Below are positions 5,985 through 27,665 of a stretch of 32,000 nucleotides of DNA, one piece after another (within the stretch, counting starts at the first letter, position 1; each line of letters starts with the position of its first letter). The DNA comes from Candidatus Saccharimonadota bacterium (GTDB lineage: Bacteria > Patescibacteriota > Gracilibacteria > UBA1369 > 2-02-FULL-48-14), in the NCBI GenBank assembly GCA_965230905.1, contig OZ246396.1, positions 840,001-872,000 on the forward strand, in the 5' to 3' direction. A program made the translations under genes and the position numbers. The notes under the pieces were generated by a model. It saw only the letters and a program-made list of their open reading frames with translations, searched no databases and had not been told where the DNA came from.

Positions 5985-6010
5985 AGTTAGAGCGCCCAAT
6001 TTGGCTGATC
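5985..6010 (+). repeat. Junction repeat of the inverted type (agttagagcgcccaatttggctgatc)
   Basis: It differs at 3 of 26 positions from 12437-12462. Both copies lie just 3' of a plus-strand cassette gene. The AGTT..CCAAnTTGG blocks resemble the reverse complement of the att-like repeat. Confidence 0.6.
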
Positions 6011-11238: not shown

Positions 11239-11468
11239 GCGGCAAGTGATATTTCCTCAGTGGCGATGAACTTTGGATAGTATTTAAGTTCTTTGAATTC
11301 CATTTTGTTTTTCTCTCCTAGATGCTCAATACAAAGCTCCATTGCTTCTGTAATATTCTCCAAAGCTTCCTCGTAGGTGTCACCTTGGGAGTGGCACCCC
11401 TTGATGGCCGGACAGGAGGAAATGTATTTCCCGTCTTCGTCGCGCTGTATAAGTACTTGGAATTTCAT
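11235..11468 (-). CDS. hicB: HicB family antitoxin, short form (UPF0150 fold only)
   Basis: 77 aa. MKFQVLIQRDEDGKYISSCPAIKGCHSQGDTYEEALENITEAMELCIE matches the HicB N-terminal domain. No C-terminal DNA-binding extension is present. It overlaps hicA through a 4-nt ATGA. Confidence 0.8.
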   Translation of the reverse strand: MKFQVLIQRDEDGKYISSCPAIKGCHSQGDTYEEALENITEAMELCIEHLGEKNKMEFKELKYYPKFIATEEISLAA

Positions 11469-18456: not shown

Positions 18457-18530
18457 TGGGGATTAGCCAAGTGGTAAGGCAGCGGGTTCTGGTCCCGCCA
18501 TCGGGGGTTCGAATCCCTCATCCCCAGCCA
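18457..18530 (+). tRNA. tRNA-Gln (anticodon CTG)
   Basis: In the manual fold the acceptor TGGGGAT pairs with ATCCCCA, the anticodon arm is GCGGG-TTCTGGT-CCCGC, the T-loop is TTCGAAT and the end is G-CCA. Length 74 nt. Confidence 0.92.
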
Positions 18531-18719: not shown

Positions 18720-19637
18720 ATGGATCTGGAGTTCATAATAAAGAAAAAAATTCGCCTTAATCTTCAGTTGGGTGCTGACCTTTTTGGCCTAGCCAACTTT
18801 ATTCCACATCCCGATGGTTCGGTTTTCATAAATTGCCCAGACCTCTTTTTCCCTGCTTCAAGGTATCTCTTTGGTGTTGTGGTTATGCCCCCTGGTGTAC
18901 AGCGATTGGGAGAGTATAGGCTTACTGAGGAGAATGGCTTCGTTCACACACACCAGCTCCCGAAGTTAACCTTACATCCAGATGGCTATATTCATGCCTC
19001 ACTTTCTTCCCCTCAAGACATAGATAAAACTCGCCGAATCCATATCGGGTCACGCTTAGGAGAGCTGAGTGGAAAGACAATCGCCACTTTGGATTGGAAA
19101 AACCTAAAAGATTTTTTGCCAAATCCACGTAGGCGCGCTGGTTATCACTTTATAAATATGAATGTGGAGAGTAAGCCACCTGATCGTCTCATGGCTTTTT
19201 TAAAAACTTCTTACGACCTAAAGGATCTCCTACCTGACCTTGAGTATGAGATCAACGGTGTAAGAGAGGCAGTTGAGTTACCACTTCCTACGAACCTAGA
19301 AAAAGAGTTAAAAGATGGAGAATTCGTTGTCTTTAACAGTGCAATAAGAAATTTCTTGAAAGTAAGGATGATAGATGAAGCAACGGGCAATATTATCCCT
19401 AGCACCAATCATCTTTTCACGTTCATCTTTGGCATCAGAGATAAAAAGGCTAACAAGATACTGTGGTATTTAATGAACCTTATTCACCCAGCAGATGTGC
19501 CTAGACCAGCTGATAGTACTTCAGGTTTTACTTTTATGGGTGCGATGAAAAACTGGGAAGAAGATCGTCTACGTGAGACTGGAGAACGCTTGATGGTTAT
19601 TGGTGACTCTTTTCAACCGCCTTCTGAAGTAACGTAA
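18720..19637 (+). CDS. Hypothetical protein (305 aa)
   Basis: ORF only. Its 3' end overlaps the convergent recombinase gene by 41 nt. Confidence 0.55.
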   Translation: MDLEFIIKKKIRLNLQLGADLFGLANFIPHPDGSVFINCPDLFFPASRYLFGVVVMPPGVQRLGEYRLTEENGFVHTHQLPKLTLHPDGYIHASLSSPQDIDKTRRIHIGSRLGELSGKTIATLDWKNLKDFLPNPRRRAGYHFINMNVESKPPDRLMAFLKTSYDLKDLLPDLEYEINGVREAVELPLPTNLEKELKDGEFVVFNSAIRNFLKVRMIDEATGNIIPSTNHLFTFIFGIRDKKANKILWYLMNLIHPADVPRPADSTSGFTFMGAMKNWEEDRLRETGERLMVIGDSFQPPSEVT

Positions 19638-20889
19638 CTTCTCCACTCTTCAAATACAGTTGTCCTTCCAGGCATTGAAGAAAGTTTCTTTTCTCCAGTG
19701 AAGTGCCGTGCTTTAGGATATAGCCGATGTAGGTTTCGTTATTGATCTCACTGGCTTTGTCTCCGAGCGTCATTGTTTGCATTTCGTTGAATTTTTGAAC
19801 CTCTCGAGTGATTTTCTTATGAATTTGTAGATCCTTGTCCTTAAATTGCTCCACCATCTTGGCTATCGACTCGATCAGTTTTTCTTCTCGAATATATTTT
19901 TCATGGCAGGTCTTTGTGCCACCGAACTTTGTACATTTGTAGTAGAGGTAGCGTTTATTGAAACGGTTGAATCTTTCTTCCCCACAAACACCAGAGCCAC
20001 AGGTTCCGCATTTAAAGAGTCTGCTGAAGTAAAAATCCTTGCTGCCCCATTTGGATTTTTCGTAGGTCTTTATCATCTGATTGGCCAGTTGCCACTGTTC
20101 CTTTGTTACAATGGGTTCATGATTTCCCTTGTACCAATTTCCGCTTTTTACTGGGTATTCAAATTCGCCATAGTAGAAGGGATCCTTGAAAATTCTATAG
20201 GTCATGCTCAGAGCAACTTTCTTTCCGCTTCTGGTACGAAAGCCCTCGTCACTCAAATAGTCATTCACCTGCCTCCCGCTCAAGCCAGATTCAGTAACAT
20301 ACTCAAACATTTTCCTTATGAAAGGCACTCTTTCTGAATCCAGCATGATTTTGCTTCCGGCTGAGTAGTTTTCCGGATCCCTGTAAAGTTTGTATCCGAG
20401 GGGTGGAAGCCCGGGCTTTTTACCGTGTTCGCATTTTGATCGAAGTCCTCGTTTTACGTTCGTTCCTCGATTGTCGTTCTCAAGTTTGGCCTGGCTACAA
20501 AGGATCATTAGGAGGAACTTTTCATTAGGATTGTTTGTGAATGTTTGACCGTAGGTTCTGATATGCAAAAGCTTCTTTGAGTCCATTAAATCCACGAGTG
20601 TACCTAAGTCTCCAGCGTTACGGCTGAGACGGTCTGGTGCCCACGTTAGGATCGCGTTAAACAGACCTTGGTCTATATCTTGAAGTAAACGATTGTATTC
20701 GGGTCTACCTCCTACAGCTTTGGCACTTTTGCTCTCCTGGCGCATCTCCACTATGTTGAGGTTTTCCTGTTTAGCAATTTTGAGCATCTCTGTGATTTGA
20801 GAGTCGATGCTCATGGCCTGTCTTTCGTCCGATTCTGAGGATTTACGTGCGTAAAGGCAGTATTTTAGGTCGATCGTGGCTTCTGTCAT
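19597..20889 (-). CDS. Large serine recombinase (resolvase domain, recombinase domain and zinc ribbon)
   Basis: The N-terminal YARKSSESDERQAMSIDSQ carries the catalytic Ser context, with DRLSRN nearby. The C-terminal CGTCGSGVCGEE..YYKC provides the Cys cluster. Confidence 0.88.
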   Translation of the reverse strand: MTEATIDLKYCLYARKSSESDERQAMSIDSQITEMLKIAKQENLNIVEMRQESKSAKAVGGRPEYNRLLQDIDQGLFNAILTWAPDRLSRNAGDLGTLVDLMDSKKLLHIRTYGQTFTNNPNEKFLLMILCSQAKLENDNRGTNVKRGLRSKCEHGKKPGLPPLGYKLYRDPENYSAGSKIMLDSERVPFIRKMFEYVTESGLSGRQVNDYLSDEGFRTRSGKKVALSMTYRIFKDPFYYGEFEYPVKSGNWYKGNHEPIVTKEQWQLANQMIKTYEKSKWGSKDFYFSRLFKCGTCGSGVCGEERFNRFNKRYLYYKCTKFGGTKTCHEKYIREEKLIESIAKMVEQFKDKDLQIHKKITREVQKFNEMQTMTLGDKASEINNETYIGYILKHGTSLEKRNFLQCLEGQLYLKSGEVTLLQKAVEKSHQ

Positions 20890-20947
20890 ATCTTATGGGT
20901 TAAGGTCTACCCACATAGATGACAGAACGATCCGACAAGTCTAGAGG

Positions 20948-21862
20948 CTAATAAACAATTTTATGCTGATCTGGACCGACATGCTCAAGTCGCCCCTTTT
21001 CTCCCACTAGGTTTTTATCAAGGATTTCACAGCAATCTTTAAGGCTCAAATTTCTTCCTTCACCAAAATATTTATAAAAGTTGCTTCCGTGATGTTTGTT
21101 GCCGGTAAATCCTCTCTGTGGATTCACTACTTTCTCATTAATTGAAATACTATTTTCTTGATTCAAAAAACTAATTATTTTTTTGTAGACTTCTTCTTTT
21201 AAACCTTGAGGAATGTCTGGAAATTCGCCGTGAGACATCTTGTGTCTCAGTCCACTTGGCCCCCAGCATTGATTATACAATTTATTTCCCAGTATTTTTT
21301 TCAGCAATTCTGGATCTACACCGTCAATTTGCTTCTCATGCTTACATTCCTCACATTTAATGGTTCTCTTGCCCTGTGCAAGATTTTCTAAAGCACTGAA
21401 AAGCATATAAAGACTGGTATGTAAGGTACTGGCATTGGTCGAATCCACCATAAAGTCGTAAAATCCATTGCCTATACCTGACTGATACAAAGCTTCTAAG
21501 CATTCAATTTCGTTTTTTCCAAAATGTAGGCCAACTCCTTCTACGTCTTTAGTGTGATTTATAAATACGATTTTCTCCTTATAATTTAGATTCAGGACAA
21601 AGAAAGGCTCTAAAACAAACTCCAATGCACACTGGCTTATAAAAGCAATCTTGGGAAGTATTGTTCTAAGCTCTCCACGGAAAGTATTCGCAGCTTCATG
21701 CCATGATTTTGCTTCCACCTCTTTACTAGCAAGCCAGTAGTCTGTCAGCCATCCATCACGCAGATTAAATTCATAATGTTCGAAATGGATGCCCTCAAAG
21801 TCAAATGGCGTTTCGCATGTGGCCATCGTCTTGATCCTATGTTTAATCAGGTATTTAGTCAT
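20948..21862 (-). CDS. Hypothetical protein (304 aa) with an Rx4H HEPN-type motif
   Basis: GLRHKMSHGEF contains R-HKMS-H. It is preceded by a helical stretch (TSLYMLFSALENLAQ) and a CEEC pair. The ATG lies 2 nt after the stop codon of the upstream gene. Confidence 0.6.
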   Translation of the reverse strand: MTKYLIKHRIKTMATCETPFDFEGIHFEHYEFNLRDGWLTDYWLASKEVEAKSWHEAANTFRGELRTILPKIAFISQCALEFVLEPFFVLNLNYKEKIVFINHTKDVEGVGLHFGKNEIECLEALYQSGIGNGFYDFMVDSTNASTLHTSLYMLFSALENLAQGKRTIKCEECKHEKQIDGVDPELLKKILGNKLYNQCWGPSGLRHKMSHGEFPDIPQGLKEEVYKKIISFLNQENSISINEKVVNPQRGFTGNKHHGSNFYKYFGEGRNLSLKDCCEILDKNLVGEKGRLEHVGPDQHKIVY

Positions 21863-21864
21863 AA

Positions 21865-22827
21865 TTATTTTTTCAAGAAGGAGTCTAGATCCTCAAAAGA
21901 ATTGAATAAATTTGAGGGAGATAGTTTTAAAATAATCGCCATTAATTGTTCTGTCAGCCTTATGAACATATCCATCTCTTTTAGGTCGACTTGATCAGTT
22001 TTAATTCCAAAGTGGATTAGCCGGTTTCTGGTTTTACTTATTCTCTGAATATTTTTCCGTGCTTTTTCATCAATATTTTTTAAGAAATACTGATTTAGTA
22101 TAAATGCAATTTTCTTATCCCCACTCATTTGTTCAATAGCCGAATTGTCCAGCCATTTTCTGTTTTTTATTGCGAAAATATGCTCCCAAATCGTCCAACA
22201 GAGAATAAATGAGGTTTCTCTTATTTGACGTTGAATAGCAGAACGAAATAAGAACAAAAAATACCCCCCTTCGTATTCCTCTTGCCATTCCTTACTTGAA
22301 ATCGTGACTAAAACTTCATTGAGACTTTTTTCGAATCCAATATTAACTTTATCCCAATAAAATATAGGCGTTTGCCCCATTTGTTTTTGGGTTCGTATTT
22401 CGCCAGTTTTCCTGCTTTTAAAAACCCAATCACTTTTTAGAGAAAGCAGCAGCTGCGCACCGTAATGATGCATTCTATGCTCAGCCATGACTATGCTACC
22501 ATTCTTGTCAGGCCAATCTTTTTTGAAAACGTTTCTATCAGTAAATATAGAAAAAAGCAGCAAAATGTCATCAAGTTGTTTTAGCGGACTTTGCCAGGAC
22601 AAGACTGCTTTTTTCTCCTTAATAGGTAGTTGCACAACTGCTGTAATTTGATGGCTGCCAACTTGTACTTTTGTTTGAAACTCGCTTCCACTTGAATCTA
22701 CCAAGTGCATCATCTTATCGAAAGCTTCTTTATAGTTAGGAATCCGTTTAAAACTATAATCGCCAACCTGGATCTCATATACATAGGGAGGAAATTCTAG
22801 ATTGAAAATGGGTAATTCTGAGGTCAA
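21865..22827 (-). CDS. Hypothetical protein (320 aa) with a C-terminal Rx4H HEPN-type motif
   Basis: ISKTRNRLIHFG contains R-NRLI-H, with Asn after the Arg as in many HEPN families. It sits in a helical C-terminal region. The start codon is TTG, so the start is uncertain. Confidence 0.6.
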   Translation of the reverse strand: MTSELPIFNLEFPPYVYEIQVGDYSFKRIPNYKEAFDKMMHLVDSSGSEFQTKVQVGSHQITAVVQLPIKEKKAVLSWQSPLKQLDDILLLFSIFTDRNVFKKDWPDKNGSIVMAEHRMHHYGAQLLLSLKSDWVFKSRKTGEIRTQKQMGQTPIFYWDKVNIGFEKSLNEVLVTISSKEWQEEYEGGYFLFLFRSAIQRQIRETSFILCWTIWEHIFAIKNRKWLDNSAIEQMSGDKKIAFILNQYFLKNIDEKARKNIQRISKTRNRLIHFGIKTDQVDLKEMDMFIRLTEQLMAIILKLSPSNLFNSFEDLDSFLKK

Positions 22828-22913
22828 TTTGTGGCCTTTTTACAGCGTGCTCATAGCTTACTACCTTTATGCCATAATGACACTTGTTTTCAGATTCACT
22901 TCACTTTTACAGC

Positions 22914-23390
22914 TTATTGAATTTTGCAATTTCTCAAAATCACATTCATCAAGTAGTCGGGCTTTTCGCCTGTTAAGGTAATTTGTTGTCCTTGAGTGAG
23001 GCTTGCGGCTTTTTCAAGCTCGGAATCTTCCAACATGCATTGAACGGTTCCGATTATGTCGCCAGTTTTCAGGGACACGTACATCGTATCCAATATGTCT
23101 TTTCCGATAGTGCTGATTGTCCCACTGACTTCGATGGTTTTGCCTTTATATTTTTCATCGGCAGCCACTTGATTACCTTTATAGTCGGAAAACAGCTGAG
23201 ATGCCGTTACAGTTGTAACTTCTTCAACGACTTCAGCCGTCGCTGCTGTTTCGGTTGTTGAGGTGCTCTGTCCCTCCTTTGGGCTTCCTAGAGCTGAAAC
23301 GACGGTGAAGAATAAGAAAACGCCACCAATCCCTGTTAATATCTTATGACGTTTGAACCAACTTTGGTTCTGAGTGTGTTCGGTAGCCAT
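22914..23390 (-). CDS. Membrane-anchored OB-fold protein (tRNA_anti-like family)
   Basis: An N-terminal TM segment (ILTGIGGVFLFFTVVSAL) is followed by SQLFSDYKGNQVAADEKYKGKTIEVSGTI, the hallmark stretch of this family. Confidence 0.65.
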   Translation of the reverse strand: MATEHTQNQSWFKRHKILTGIGGVFLFFTVVSALGSPKEGQSTSTTETAATAEVVEEVTTVTASQLFSDYKGNQVAADEKYKGKTIEVSGTISTIGKDILDTMYVSLKTGDIIGTVQCMLEDSELEKAASLTQGQQITLTGEKPDYLMNVILRNCKIQ

Positions 23391-23450
23391 ACTTTTGTTG
23401 GGTTAAAAGGTTAAGCTACAGGCATATTATCCGATTTTGGGTTATTATCA

Positions 23451-23465
23451 ATCCTAAAATAGGAT
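23451..23465. promoter_or_regulatory. Candidate operator palindrome upstream of the XRE gene
   Basis: atccta-aaa-taggat is a perfect 6-bp inverted repeat lying 8 nt upstream of the ATG, in the divergent intergenic region. Confidence 0.4.
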
Positions 23466-23472
23466 ACTCTTT

Positions 23473-23688
23473 ATGAGCACAATAGCTTCAAAAGAGTACC
23501 GGGAAATCATCGAACGCCTTATTAAGGCTAGGAAAGATGCTGGTCTTACGCAAGTAGAGGTCGCAAAACTTTTAGGTAAACCTCAATCCTTCGTTTCAAA
23601 AGTTGAAAGTCGAGAGAGGAGACTAGATATTGTTGAAATAAAACAATTTGCAAAGATCTATGCGGTCAATGTTTCGGATTTAATTTAG
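23473..23688 (+). CDS. XRE-family helix-turn-helix regulator
   Basis: 71 aa. RKDAGLTQVEVAKLLGKPQSFVSKVESRERRLDIVE is a classic HTH_3 pattern. Confidence 0.85.
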   Translation: MSTIASKEYREIIERLIKARKDAGLTQVEVAKLLGKPQSFVSKVESRERRLDIVEIKQFAKIYAVNVSDLI

Positions 23689-23722
23689 GCTATTAAATAT
23701 AGAGGGGTAGTGTTGGCATTTT

Positions 23723-25237
23723 TTAATGCCACTGAACTCTTTTATATCCAAATCTATCTTCATATTCCGTACGATCTAAATAATGTGATGTGGAAGATCC
23801 ATCGTTATGCAAAAATGCTAACATCAAACCGCTTCTTTGTTTTTCCTGAGCCGCGAATGTGATTAACATGGTAAGTGCGTCTACAAGGTCATCATGCCTT
23901 TCAAGACCAAAGTTCAACAATTGTTGAATAAGTTTTTCGCATCCTTGCTCTGGAAATAGGATCTGACCTCTCTCAAATAAGTGTGAAACTAACATTAGTC
24001 GAGCACTTTTATCTCCCCTTGGGGTTACGCCTTCTACAATGCAGCCTCTATTTTTTAAAGTTTCAATTGCTGCTTTTTGATACGCAACATCTTCTACAAT
24101 CAGCTTTGCTTCATGAGCGTCATGGATATTCTTAGCCGTGTTAATGGTTTCTTCAAAGGTCAACCTGCTGTTAATAGGGTTTGGTAGAATGTAAATTGCC
24201 ATCTTTTCTCCATAGCCATGCACTTGTGCGCTGACCATTGCAGTGCAATCTGCCTTTTGATTTTGTGAAATAGCTAAATCTATCCCAGTTAGTACTTTTC
24301 TAAATTTGAATTCTCTGTTTTTCTTATCTTTCTCTGGTAACTGAGTGTAGTAGTGAATCCACTTTGGGAAAATAATTCGATCCGTATTCGTTACGATATT
24401 GAGCATGTACTCCCTTTGCCACGATGATTCTTTTCCGATCCGTTTCTTTTCGTTTAGGATGCTTTCCTCACTAGGGAACTTAGCTGGCCACAAACAGTTT
24501 TCCTTATCATCGAGCAAGGGATAAGCGCGAAATTCGCCATTAAACTCTTTTCTTTGAATACGGCCTTTGAGTCTCATGATGAAAGAATCTTCATGTAGAA
24601 GGTTTCCGATAACAACAAGGCGTGTGTCTGGAGTACCTGCAGGTATGATTTCGCTTGTGATTGCATCATCTACTTTATCTCTCCCTTCTAGAGTTTTTAC
24701 TGAGTTAATATCTTCAACGTCGTCGCAGATTATAAGATCAGGTCGATGAGCACCGTGACGAGTACCACGGATGCTTTGATCTATAGATACTGCTGTGATT
24801 CGTGCCCCAAAATTTGGGATTTCAAGTGTATATGAGTTCCATTCGTCTTCGATTTCCTTAAATGGCCCCAGATCTCTCATCAAAAGGGTATTATTTTCTA
24901 ACTCCTGTTTGATATTCTTCAAATGCCGTTTAGCTTGTTCCTGAGTAAAGCCAACGATTACAACGTACTTGCATTGTCGTTTCCCTAAAATAGACCAGAT
25001 AGGAAGACTCATGTTCATGATGGTAGACTTTCCAGAACCTCTAAAAGCCACAATTACGGTGTTTCTTACCGAATCACTCTCCGTTAGTGCAAACATTTCC
25101 TTTTGAAAGTCTGCGGTGTCGTAGCCAATGTAATGGCCAAAATAGATATGAAAGAAAAAATAGTGGCTTTCATATGCAAGCTTTCTTCGAGCTGCGCTGC
25201 TTTTTATGATGTTTTGAAGGTTTTCAATTTTTTTCAT
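23723..25237 (-). CDS. terL: Terminase large subunit
   Basis: Walker A-like AFRGSGKST, Walker B LIICDDVED and a C-terminal nuclease-like region (GIDLA.., IVEDVAYQ, DDLVDAL). Confidence 0.85.
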   Translation of the reverse strand: MKKIENLQNIIKSSAARRKLAYESHYFFFHIYFGHYIGYDTADFQKEMFALTESDSVRNTVIVAFRGSGKSTIMNMSLPIWSILGKRQCKYVVIVGFTQEQAKRHLKNIKQELENNTLLMRDLGPFKEIEDEWNSYTLEIPNFGARITAVSIDQSIRGTRHGAHRPDLIICDDVEDINSVKTLEGRDKVDDAITSEIIPAGTPDTRLVVIGNLLHEDSFIMRLKGRIQRKEFNGEFRAYPLLDDKENCLWPAKFPSEESILNEKKRIGKESSWQREYMLNIVTNTDRIIFPKWIHYYTQLPEKDKKNREFKFRKVLTGIDLAISQNQKADCTAMVSAQVHGYGEKMAIYILPNPINSRLTFEETINTAKNIHDAHEAKLIVEDVAYQKAAIETLKNRGCIVEGVTPRGDKSARLMLVSHLFERGQILFPEQGCEKLIQQLLNFGLERHDDLVDALTMLITFAAQEKQRSGLMLAFLHNDGSSTSHYLDRTEYEDRFGYKRVQWH

Positions 25238-25655
25238 TTGAATTGAGATTAGATGGCAATAAAAGTCCGGCGTGTTTTAGGGCGGTAGTGATTTGCTCTT
25301 CCTGCTCTAGGGTGAGCTTGGTATTTGTTTTAAGTTCTCCGGATAGCTCTACTCGAGTTTTGTAATCTGGGTGATTATTCTTGAGCCAGAATATAATTCC
25401 GGTCATGTTGCCATCCCGTACGGCCTTTAGTAGCTGCGATTCTGCCATATCGTTAACGAGGCTTTTTCCTCGGCATAGAGCTTCATCCGCTTCTTCTGCA
25501 AATTTCTCGTCTTCTTTGCGCCAGCGGTAGTAGCTAGCCCTTCCAACTCCGACTTTTTCACAGGCGATTTGAACAATTGGAGTTTTACGAAGCTGCTCGA
25601 TGAGCTCCGCTTTGTTTTTATCTGTTTTTTGCGAAATGTTTTCGTCCATATTCAT
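25224..25655 (-). CDS. Terminase small subunit-like HTH protein
   Basis: 143 aa. IACEKVGVGRASYYRWRKEDEKF is an HTH segment. The gene overlaps terL by 14 nt in the position usual for terS. Confidence 0.6.
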   Translation of the reverse strand: MNMDENISQKTDKNKAELIEQLRKTPIVQIACEKVGVGRASYYRWRKEDEKFAEEADEALCRGKSLVNDMAESQLLKAVRDGNMTGIIFWLKNNHPDYKTRVELSGELKTNTKLTLEQEEQITTALKHAGLLLPSNLNSNEKN

Positions 25656-26407
25656 GGGATTAGTAAGCTAGCTTTTTGGCCAGTCATTTTTTCAAAGCGG
25701 TCTATGATCACTTGGCAGTAAACGGGATCTATCTCGACACCAATGCATATTCGTTTTGTTTGCTCGCAGGCAAGTAATGTTGAGCCGCTTCCAAGAAAGG
25801 GGTCATAAACAAGTTCACCGATCTTTGTGCTGTTCAAAATCAGTCTTCGAAGAAGTGGGATTGGTTTCATCGTGGGATGAAGAGTGTTCTTTAAAGGTTT
25901 CGGAGCTATGAGAACGCTTTTATCCTTATAAAGTGGGATTTCATGCTTTCCTTGCCAGCCATAGGCTATGAGTTCATGCTGGGGACAGTAGTCCAGCCGT
26001 CCTATAACCGCTCCCGTCTTCACCCAAATGAGAAGCTGAGACAGTTTAAAACCTTGGCTAATTAAGGCTTCACGGAGGCTGAAAACCATTCTGTCCGAGT
26101 TGAATATGTAGTACGAGTTTTTATCTTTCAGGTATGGTTTTATAAGTTTCAGCCAGCTCTCGGAGAACTCCTGATAAACTTCTTCGTTTTGGATCTGGTC
26201 ATTTGCAATTTTCTTGTGATTGCTCGCCTTATAGTCCACACCATAAGGCGGATCTGTGAGGATTAAATTAAACTTCTGCTCACTTAAAAGTTCTTGAACA
26301 AGCTTTTCAGCTCTAGAGTCGCCACAAGCGAGTAGATGATTTCCGAGTTTATAAATGTTTCCAGGCTTAATTAAGGAGCTTGGCTTTTTTTCCAGTGAGT
26401 TTTTCAT
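25652..26407 (-). CDS. DNA methyltransferase, beta class (N6-adenine or N4-cytosine)
   Basis: Motif IV (LTDPPYG) precedes motif I (DPFLGSGSTLLACE). Confidence 0.85.
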   Translation of the reverse strand: MKNSLEKKPSSLIKPGNIYKLGNHLLACGDSRAEKLVQELLSEQKFNLILTDPPYGVDYKASNHKKIANDQIQNEEVYQEFSESWLKLIKPYLKDKNSYYIFNSDRMVFSLREALISQGFKLSQLLIWVKTGAVIGRLDYCPQHELIAYGWQGKHEIPLYKDKSVLIAPKPLKNTLHPTMKPIPLLRRLILNSTKIGELVYDPFLGSGSTLLACEQTKRICIGVEIDPVYCQVIIDRFEKMTGQKASLLIP

Positions 26408-27665
26408 AACGAGTGATGATTAAAGAGCAAAATAAGGGATCCAGTTCCACCATGAAGCACGACCGCTTCATTTGCTCTGCAGCAATCAAAGTAGCTCCAG
26501 AGCCGCCGAACAGTTCTAGGATAGTGTCTCCAGGTTTTGTGCAGCGACGGATGATCTTTTCATAGAGCGTTGGTGGTTTCGAAGTTGGATGCAGATATTC
26601 ACTTGAAGGCAAGCGGCTTTCTAGCCAAATATTGAATAAGTCCATGACCTCGCCGTGGAGGCGATTACCCGTGCTTACCTCCTTGTTTAGAATTTCGTTA
26701 AAATTGGTGTGATATTGAGACAGGAAAGGCTCTCCAGTTATTCCATACACGCAGGGTTCATAGACTTTGTTGAAGGCCACTTGGGGCGTAGCCATTTGGT
26801 TGTTCTTGAGCCAGATGCAAACCCGTTCATTTTTAATACCAACTTCTTCATAGAGTTCCTGAATAAGGCCGATGTAGCGTTCGTCACACCAGTAGGCAAA
26901 GTGACAATCCTTCTGAGCAATTGAAAGAGCGTTCTCGATCGTCTTTTTAAGAAAGGATTTATAGTCGACTCTACTTTTATTGTCTTGAACTTTAGTACCG
27001 CCGTATTTCCCCTTGGTTCCGATTCCGTTGTTGTAATTCAAGGAAATGTTGAAGGGTGGATCCGCGCAGACCAGCTCAATAGAAGTTTTACCGGCCAGTC
27101 TTTGAACGACCTCCAGCTTTGTTGAATCGCCACAAATAAGGCGGTGGTTTCCAAGTTCGTACATTTCACCTTCCTTTACGAAGGGCGTGATTTTCTTTAT
27201 TTCCTCTTGTTCATCAAAGTGGTCGTCCTCTGTCTCAAGCACCTCATCCCAAATGTGGTGAAGGTCTGAGTCATCAAAGCCAATGTCTAAAAGGAGGGAG
27301 ATATCAAAATTCTTAAGCAGATCGTAGTCCCAAGCTCCTTGGTCACGGTTAAGGCGAAGGTTGAGTTCTACCTCCCTTTCTTCCTCCGGGATATTAATGT
27401 ATACTACTGGAATTTCTGTGCATCCAAGGTCTTTAGCGATTTTCAGGCGAAAATGACCGCCAATTACAATATTTTTACGATTAGGTGCTGAGTTTACGAG
27501 GATGGGGTCTACAATGCCAAAGCTCTTTATACTTTCTGTGAGGTCTTCTACTGCTTTCTTATCCCACTTCCTTGGATTGTATGGAGCAGGGTTTAGATCA
27601 GTAACTAAAACATTCGTGATCTTTAGGATTCGTGAGTTGTCTTTCATAGGATGCGGGTTAAGCAT
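26367..27665 (-). CDS. ParB-like nuclease domain fused to a beta-class DNA methyltransferase
   Basis: The N-terminus NPRKWDKKAVEDLTESIKSFGIVDPILVN..GGHFR is ParB-like. It is followed by CADPPFN (motif IV) and LFGGSGATLIAAE (motif I). Confidence 0.85.
   Translation of the reverse strand: MLNPHPMKDNSRILKITNVLVTDLNPAPYNPRKWDKKAVEDLTESIKSFGIVDPILVNSAPNRKNIVIGGHFRLKIAKDLGCTEIPVVYINIPEEEREVELNLRLNRDQGAWDYDLLKNFDISLLLDIGFDDSDLHHIWDEVLETEDDHFDEQEEIKKITPFVKEGEMYELGNHRLICGDSTKLEVVQRLAGKTSIELVCADPPFNISLNYNNGIGTKGKYGGTKVQDNKSRVDYKSFLKKTIENALSIAQKDCHFAYWCDERYIGLIQELYEEVGIKNERVCIWLKNNQMATPQVAFNKVYEPCVYGITGEPFLSQYHTNFNEILNKEVSTGNRLHGEVMDLFNIWLESRLPSSEYLHPTSKPPTLYEKIIRRCTKPGDTILELFGGSGATLIAAEQMKRSCFMVELDPLFCSLIITRYEKLTGKKAKLLN

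Follow-up and report, generated by a model that had tools for sequence, protein, structure and literature searches.

A short ApeA-like HEPN gene and a neighbour from an undescribed, probably HEPN-type family in the cargo slot of a small Patescibacteria integrative element

Two adjacent genes of a Candidatus Saccharimonadota bacterium, which we call A and B, lie beside a serine recombinase gene, and each encodes a protein with the Rx4H string typical of HEPN RNases. They are found in a 32,000-nucleotide (nt) stretch of contig OZ246396.1 (assembly GCA_965230905.1, positions 840,001 to 872,000), hereafter the window; positions without a locus name refer to it. A first-pass annotation of the sequence had proposed that the pair forms a two-component abortive-infection or toxin system, possibly a heterodimer with a composite active site. 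This raises two questions: are A and B HEPN proteins, and do they belong together? We found that A carries a HEPN_Apea domain, and that B belongs to a sizeable family without a library match, in which a HEPN-like signature is invariant and sits in the expected helical position. The two families mostly occur apart. On balance, we consider it probable that the locus encodes two independent single-gene HEPN-type RNase effectors, probably co-transcribed, as defence cargo of an integrative element of ~8 kb.

Both genes are encoded on the minus strand. Gene A (21865-22827) encodes 320 amino acids (aa), with an N-terminal domain of ~195 aa followed by the C-terminal HEPN_Apea domain, and gene B (20948-21862) encodes 304 aa. 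Their junction reads TAA-tt-ATG, so that the stop codon of A and the start codon of B are separated by 2 nt. A can only start at the TTG at 22827, the sole start upstream of its conserved N-terminus, because a stop codon lies four codons further upstream. The ATG of B at 21862 is confirmed by an N-terminus that is conserved across its family, and the protein sequence of B is that of NCBI entry MEK9159312.1, from a metagenome-assembled genome (MAG) of a Patescibacteria group bacterium. The lengths, spacing and shared orientation with the neighbouring OB-fold (oligonucleotide/oligosaccharide-binding) and recombinase genes are thus as first annotated. So is the presence of one Rx4H string per protein, R267 to H272 in A and R206 to H211 in B, with a polar residue after the arginine (N in A, H in B). 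The accompanying caution that such a string can arise by chance was justified: 0.30 and 0.41 occurrences are expected in proteins of these compositions. The string alone is therefore not significant, and its conservation had to be tested.

Protein A matched the Pfam family HEPN_Apea (PF18739) over residues 218-299 with E=8.2e-5 and 23.5 bits, 0.9 bits under the cut-off of 24.4. The consensus of the A family exceeded this cut-off (28.8 bits, E=1.8e-6), and PF18739 was matched by 26 of 38 A homologues. Weaker cross-matches of the family fell on the RiboL-PSP, DUF3644 and Swt1 HEPN models, and the PADLOC matches of A, all weak, were to Cas13-ApeA and DUF3644 models. We collected 185 homologues, mainly from Patescibacteria MAGs; several are already named "HEPN domain-containing protein", and many have a precomputed PF18739 match. 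From the Pfam match positions and the conservation, the domain extends over residues 205-301, including E215 (21925-22215, minus strand). It contains ISKTRNRLIHFG, which holds the predicted catalytic motif R267-N-R-L-I-H272 (22012-22029, minus strand). R267 and H272 were invariant in an alignment of 38 sequences with identities down to 43%, together with W214, E215 and F218, and the pattern R-[N/S]-x-x-[I/V/T]-H was kept in 118 of 120 homologues. A therefore combines a conserved Rx4-6H motif, with a polar residue after the arginine, with a significant match to a curated HEPN family. Residues 1 to ~195 matched no family in Pfam, PADLOC and further profile libraries, and sequence-profile searches of the PDB with A-family alignments gave chance matches only. 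Judged by its sequence, A is a HEPN_Apea-domain protein, not a canonical ApeA. The HEPN reading is thereby borne out for A, and the statement that no named system could be recognised was wrong for this protein.

Protein B had no match in Pfam, PADLOC, PHROGs or NCBIfam, and NCBIfam was also negative for 80 members of its family. A word-indexed search with B returned three close relatives only. An exhaustive profile search yielded 288 clusters (50% identity) at E≤1e-3, 203 of them at E≤1e-10, nearly all ~300 aa in length and from a wide range of phyla. An alignment of 80 sequences, whose columns average 30% identity, has just three invariant positions: R206, H211 and R250. The first two delimit a putative catalytic motif, R206-H-K-M-S-H211, which is followed by G212 (21230-21247, minus strand) and lies within SGLRHKMSHGEF. 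All full-length members but one (P0233, 270 aa) have [L/I/V]-R-x4-H at ~200-215, and 141 of 145 members have a polar residue after the motif arginine (H in 86, N in 48, Q in 7). At least 90% of the sequences share E159, and 55 of 111 have K or R at +4. The third invariant residue lies in the loop P248-Q249-R250 (21113-21121, minus strand), all three residues of which are invariant in two further alignments. B thus belongs to a real but undescribed family, which is most likely of the known HEPN kind.

We used AlphaFold2 to predict the structure of B. With 26 diverse homologues as input, the model reached a pLDDT (predicted local distance difference test) of 86.3, compared with 48.8 for a four-sequence input. 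The predicted structure consists of an N-terminal α/β domain (residues 1-110), a putative HEPN-like helical domain (residues 116-236; 21155-21517, minus strand) and a C-terminal β-rich region. According to DSSP, the helical domain is built from a helix at 132-143, a helix at 147-161 that carries E159, a β-hairpin within 163-182, a helix at 184-200 that ends in a break, a short helix at 205-210 with the R206-H211 motif, and a helix at 221-236. According to PMC3710099, helix 2 of HEPN domains carries an acidic E-x3-[K/R] motif and is joined to helix 3 by a variable insert; helix 3 then ends, often with a distortion, in Rx4-6H, whose arginine precedes a polar residue (N, D or H). B agrees with this layout, compared as the order of secondary-structure elements in the model, and its conserved motif with a polar residue after the arginine fits as well. 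Sub-threshold database matches of B members were enriched for HEPN models, namely HEPN_Swt1 (two members), HEPN_MAE_28990, HEPN_RiboL-PSP and four CARF_HEPN models; the bona fide HEPN family A yields cross-matches of the same kind. We regard a HEPN fold of B as likely and well motivated, if somewhat short of firm.

The CEEC pair that had been noted in B is present, as C170 and C173, but it is not a feature of the family. The alignment and the model place it in a β-hairpin insertion (residues 162-183; 21314-21379, minus strand) between putative HEPN helices 2 and 3, with strands at 163-169 and 176-182, and the alignment restricts this hairpin to the subclade of the window's B. We therefore rejected the CxxC pair as a family-wide zinc site. 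A few unrelated members of the B family have Cys-containing inserts of their own at the same spot, and zinc-ribbon-like insertions seem to arise preferentially at this site.

Next, we asked whether A and B occur together. Among 80 metagenome loci with A homologues, 54 had at least 900 nt of downstream DNA, and none of these 54 contained an open reading frame (ORF) of the B family; A thus has no conserved partner, as is the case for the single gene ApeA. The window's A is itself 74% identical to A genes that stand alone. Conversely, B lacked an A-type neighbour in ~38 of ~40 B lineages, among them a sister element in another Patescibacteria genome (our loci L001-L004) that has B and not A despite a co-linear core. 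The A-B pair is retained in close relatives of the window (L005-L007). In three further loci, two from Gammaproteobacteria MAGs (L021 and L022) and one from Saccharibacteria (L025), a distant full-length A homologue lies directly upstream of B. These A-like proteins have 318-324 aa, an RNQLAH motif and matches to the A profile at E of ~1e-8 to 1e-9. The gene pairs (L025, 878-2802; L021, 841-2747; L022, 901-2807) lie within Type I restriction-modification operons, in L025 between hsdM and hsdS. In a rough neighbour-joining tree their B genes fall in a branch other than that of the window's B, so the order A-then-B has been found in two separated lineages of about forty. This recurrence is above chance adjacency and far below obligate linkage. 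The homologues thus live mostly apart, and the idea of a dedicated two-component system or heterodimer is mostly not borne out. The A-like genes of the Saccharibacteria MAG and the Gammaproteobacteria MAGs are 76% identical across phyla, which suggests recent inter-phylum transfer.

We then compared the genomic contexts of the two families. Three A contexts without B contained, respectively, Type III restriction-modification genes with AAA_15, PDDEXK and recombinase genes; a Ymh-HEPN gene with HicA; and an AAA_28 gene. A stands alone in L008-L012, and in several loci the family also adjoins HsdM/S, IIG enzymes or serine recombinases. For B, a 10-sequence subset of its alignment retrieved 36 further loci, from Saccharibacteria, Parcubacteria, Peribacteria, Gracilibacteria, Gamma- and Alphaproteobacteria, Nitrospirae, Omnitrophota, Elusimicrobia, Binatia and a Woesearchaeota archaeon. 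Most of them show a solo B gene, and seven B genes lie in Type I or IIG restriction-modification operons. The gene orders include hsdM-B-hsdS (L018), hsdM-hsdS-B (L020), N6_Mtase/SLFN-B (L040) and Eco57I-type IIG methyltransferase-B (L035 and L050). Elsewhere, B neighbours a Fic gene, a transposase gene and, directly abutting, an Xre helix-turn-helix (HTH) gene. Both families therefore occur in defence or mobile contexts, with restriction-modification operons, recombinases and toxin genes nearby, in line with the first-pass annotation. A search of IMG/VR for the A family found no member.

Two of the B loci deserve separate mention. In L134 (3877-5915), a Fic gene (DUF4172+Fic) lies 17 nt upstream of the B homologue, which echoes the published link of Fic/Doc to restriction-modification-associated HEPN genes. 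In L013/L014 (5745-7311), the B homologue is annotated with 436 aa, ~130 of which form an N-terminal extension. An Xre-type HTH gene directly adjoins it (stop at 5999, start at 6001) in a toxin-antitoxin-like arrangement, and Mrr_cat or SLFN_AlbA_2 genes lie nearby.

The carrier of A and B is an integrative element with a core of ~8 kb (19597-27665). By Pfam, this core contains the recombinase, B, A, the OB-fold gene, an HTH gene, TerL, a small HTH/terS-like gene, a methyltransferase and a ParB_N-methyltransferase. The large serine recombinase (19597-20889, minus strand; Resolvase, Recombinase and Zn_ribbon_recom domains) lies 58 nt downstream of B. At the head of the co-oriented string, 86 nt upstream of A, is the gene for a membrane-anchored OB-fold (tRNA_anti-like) protein (22914-23390, minus strand). 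It matched Pfam PF12869 (E=3.5e-22) and PHROG 8545, "superinfection exclusion Sie-like" (E=3.7e-21), which makes it a candidate third exclusion gene of the string. Beyond it lies an HTH_3 regulator (23473-23688, plus strand). The sister element L001-L004 has a co-linear core at 55-67% aa identity (3989-10229 in L001). The shared part comprises the ParB-methyltransferase, the small HTH/terS-like gene, TerL, the OB-fold gene, B and the recombinase; the OB-fold homologue is inverted in L001 relative to the window. The conserved core of ~8 kb has no capsid, portal or tail genes, and the element looks more like a satellite-like or mini integrative element than a prophage.

Several further features of the element and its borders were observed. 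Two N6_N4 DNA methyltransferase genes lie in tandem (25652-27665, minus strand) with a 41-nt overlap. The upstream one is fused to a ParB_N domain, and the second (25652-26407) is absent from the L001 sister element. At the other end, a 305-aa ORF without a family match (18720-19637, plus strand) converges on the 3' end of the recombinase gene, with a 41-nt overlap. It was rejected as a conserved part of the element, because the 346-aa ORF in the corresponding place of L001 is not its homologue. Just past it lies a tRNA-Gln gene (18457-18530), which could be the integration site; no direct repeats of att type were found. L001 and L002 differ in sequence beyond 11261, and the L003 and L004 contigs stop at 11437, which suggests a variable junction or rearrangement point adjoining the recombinase end of the element. 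Scanning for promoters and terminators told us little, as shuffled sequences gave similar counts.

How might the locus work? In the reading that we favour, A and B are stacked with the Sie-like exclusion protein in a cargo slot beside the recombinase. A would act as a "mini-ApeA", whose HEPN_Apea domain (E215, R267-N-x3-H272) homodimerises to form a composite, metal-independent RNase site. The N-terminal domain, conserved and ~195 aa long, may keep the protein latent until an infection signal arrives, upon which A would cut tRNA or other RNA, as full-length ApeA does. B would be a second latent RNase, again a homodimer with a composite site, acting in a PrrC-like manner without an ATPase domain. 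The N-terminal domains of A and of B could each sense a signal of their own.

Several results weigh against this reading. A Foldseek search with the AlphaFold2 model of B, which has the HEPN-type order of elements, returned nothing below E=1e-3 in the PDB or BFVD. Sequence-profile searches of the PDB with B alignments, including one of the HEPN region, gave chance matches only, and the B consensus matches no Pfam HEPN family. For these three reasons we count the HEPN fold of B as inferred, not demonstrated. A and B showed no match to each other in BLASTP, and hhalign aligned the motif only, at 1.7-5.5% probability, so the two are not paralogues at a detectable level. On the question of a pair, this lack of similarity outside the motif counts in favour of independence. 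A, B and the B consensus were absent from INPHARED phages and PLSDB plasmids. In addition, a functional link of some kind between the two genes is favoured by their 2-nt spacing and by the second, distant A-like/B pair. The lack of any fold or profile match leaves room for B as something other than a HEPN RNase, for example an accessory of restriction-modification systems or mobile elements. It might be a regulator, serve neighbouring toxins as immunity protein or antitoxin, or be an enzyme whose R, H and R take part in different chemistry. R250, in a P-Q-R loop outside the HEPN definition, would fit such a role, as would the diverse toxins (A, Fic) and the Xre HTH gene that adjoin B. We nevertheless consider it improbable, as R-[H/N/Q]-x3-H, the upstream E-x3-K helix and the insert agree with the HEPN signature point by point, and the weak cross-matches are enriched for HEPN models. 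Moreover, B cannot be a dedicated antitoxin, because it usually stands alone.

A dedicated system of two HEPN proteins, either a hetero-oligomer with a composite site or one in which one protein senses and the other executes, would explain the tight junction, the pair kept in L005-L007 and the A-like gene abutting a B of a different branch in L021, L022 and L025. It is hard to reconcile with the A loci that lack B and with the solo occurrence of B, which extends to the sister element and to the same hsdM-hsdS slot in L018. The similarity of the window's A to solo A genes speaks against it too, and known single-HEPN proteins homodimerise. We therefore judge it unlikely, if a little less so than a non-HEPN role of B. 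We give about the same low credence to a bolder proposal. In it, B would found a new, broad, restriction-modification-linked HEPN family (~290 clusters from bacteria and a Woesearchaeota archaeon) and, in at least two lineages, form a hetero-oligomeric two-HEPN RNase with a short ApeA-like partner, giving Patescibacteria a mobile RNA-targeting immunity cassette. An addiction or stabilisation module, in which A and B serve the mobile element as toxins and not mainly as anti-phage defence, seems very improbable. The two genes do adjoin the recombinase of an integrative element, and HEPN toxins are known from toxin-antitoxin systems. However, the window has no antitoxin-like partner such as an MNT (minimal nucleotidyltransferase) gene, a small upstream ORF or RNA repeats; we found no tandem repeats in it, and an Rfam scan detected tRNAs only, so an RNA antitoxin is unlikely. 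Both families also lie mostly in restriction-modification or chromosomal contexts and not on plasmids. Two single-gene effectors thus remain the reading that we prefer.

If this reading holds, the ApeA-like HEPN nucleases would, with A, include a minimal version of ~320 aa, common among genomes of Patescibacteria (the candidate phyla radiation), and its changed sensor domain could reveal how HEPN effectors come to respond to new triggers. B represents a family of considerable size that escapes current defence-finder and domain libraries, and it occupies a classic slot, embedded in restriction-modification operons. Should B prove to be an RNase, both the HEPN superfamily and defence annotation would gain a new family. 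Patescibacteria mostly lack CRISPR (clustered regularly interspaced short palindromic repeats). The locus suggests that, in these ultra-small bacteria, defence genes are stacked on small integrative elements that bear a terminase.

Finally, we compared A and B with known HEPN systems. HepT/MNT, AbiD/AbiF/Abi2, RnlA, DARNA/PD-T7-3 and Ymh share with them one HEPN domain per polypeptide (a putative one in B), Rx4-6H with a polar residue after the arginine, and a defence-island context. Unlike these, A and B lack an MNT or antitoxin partner as well as RNA antitoxin repeats, and they do not match the profiles of these families above threshold; neither the HEPN-MNT nor the type III (AbiF-like) toxin-antitoxin arrangement was found in the window. 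PrrC and RloC resemble them in the Rx4H signature and in location, as the B family and some A homologues lie beside or between hsdM and hsdS in Type I operons. In contrast to the ATPase-HEPN fusions PrrC and RloC, A and B have no N-terminal ABC-ATPase domain and no sequence similarity to them, and the window's B lies on a mobile element and not in a restriction-modification operon. The logic of a latent, second-line defence would be shared. Characterised ApeA proteins, of ~470-600 aa, are divided into an N-terminal, a Mid and a split HEPN domain and assemble into dimers and doughnut-shaped oligomers (decamers or dodecamers); ApeA is a single-gene HEPN nuclease that cuts tRNA anticodon loops or phage RNA (10.64898/2026.01.26.701840; 10.64898/2026.03.20.713152). 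A departs from this architecture, with 320 aa, about half the length, and an N-terminal domain unrelated to that of ApeA. Like ApeA (PF18739; Ec1/Ec2ApeA), it has a HEPN_Apea domain with RNxxxH and is a stand-alone gene near restriction-modification or defence genes. A likely shares the mechanism too, as an RNase that stays latent and dimerises by way of its HEPN domain.

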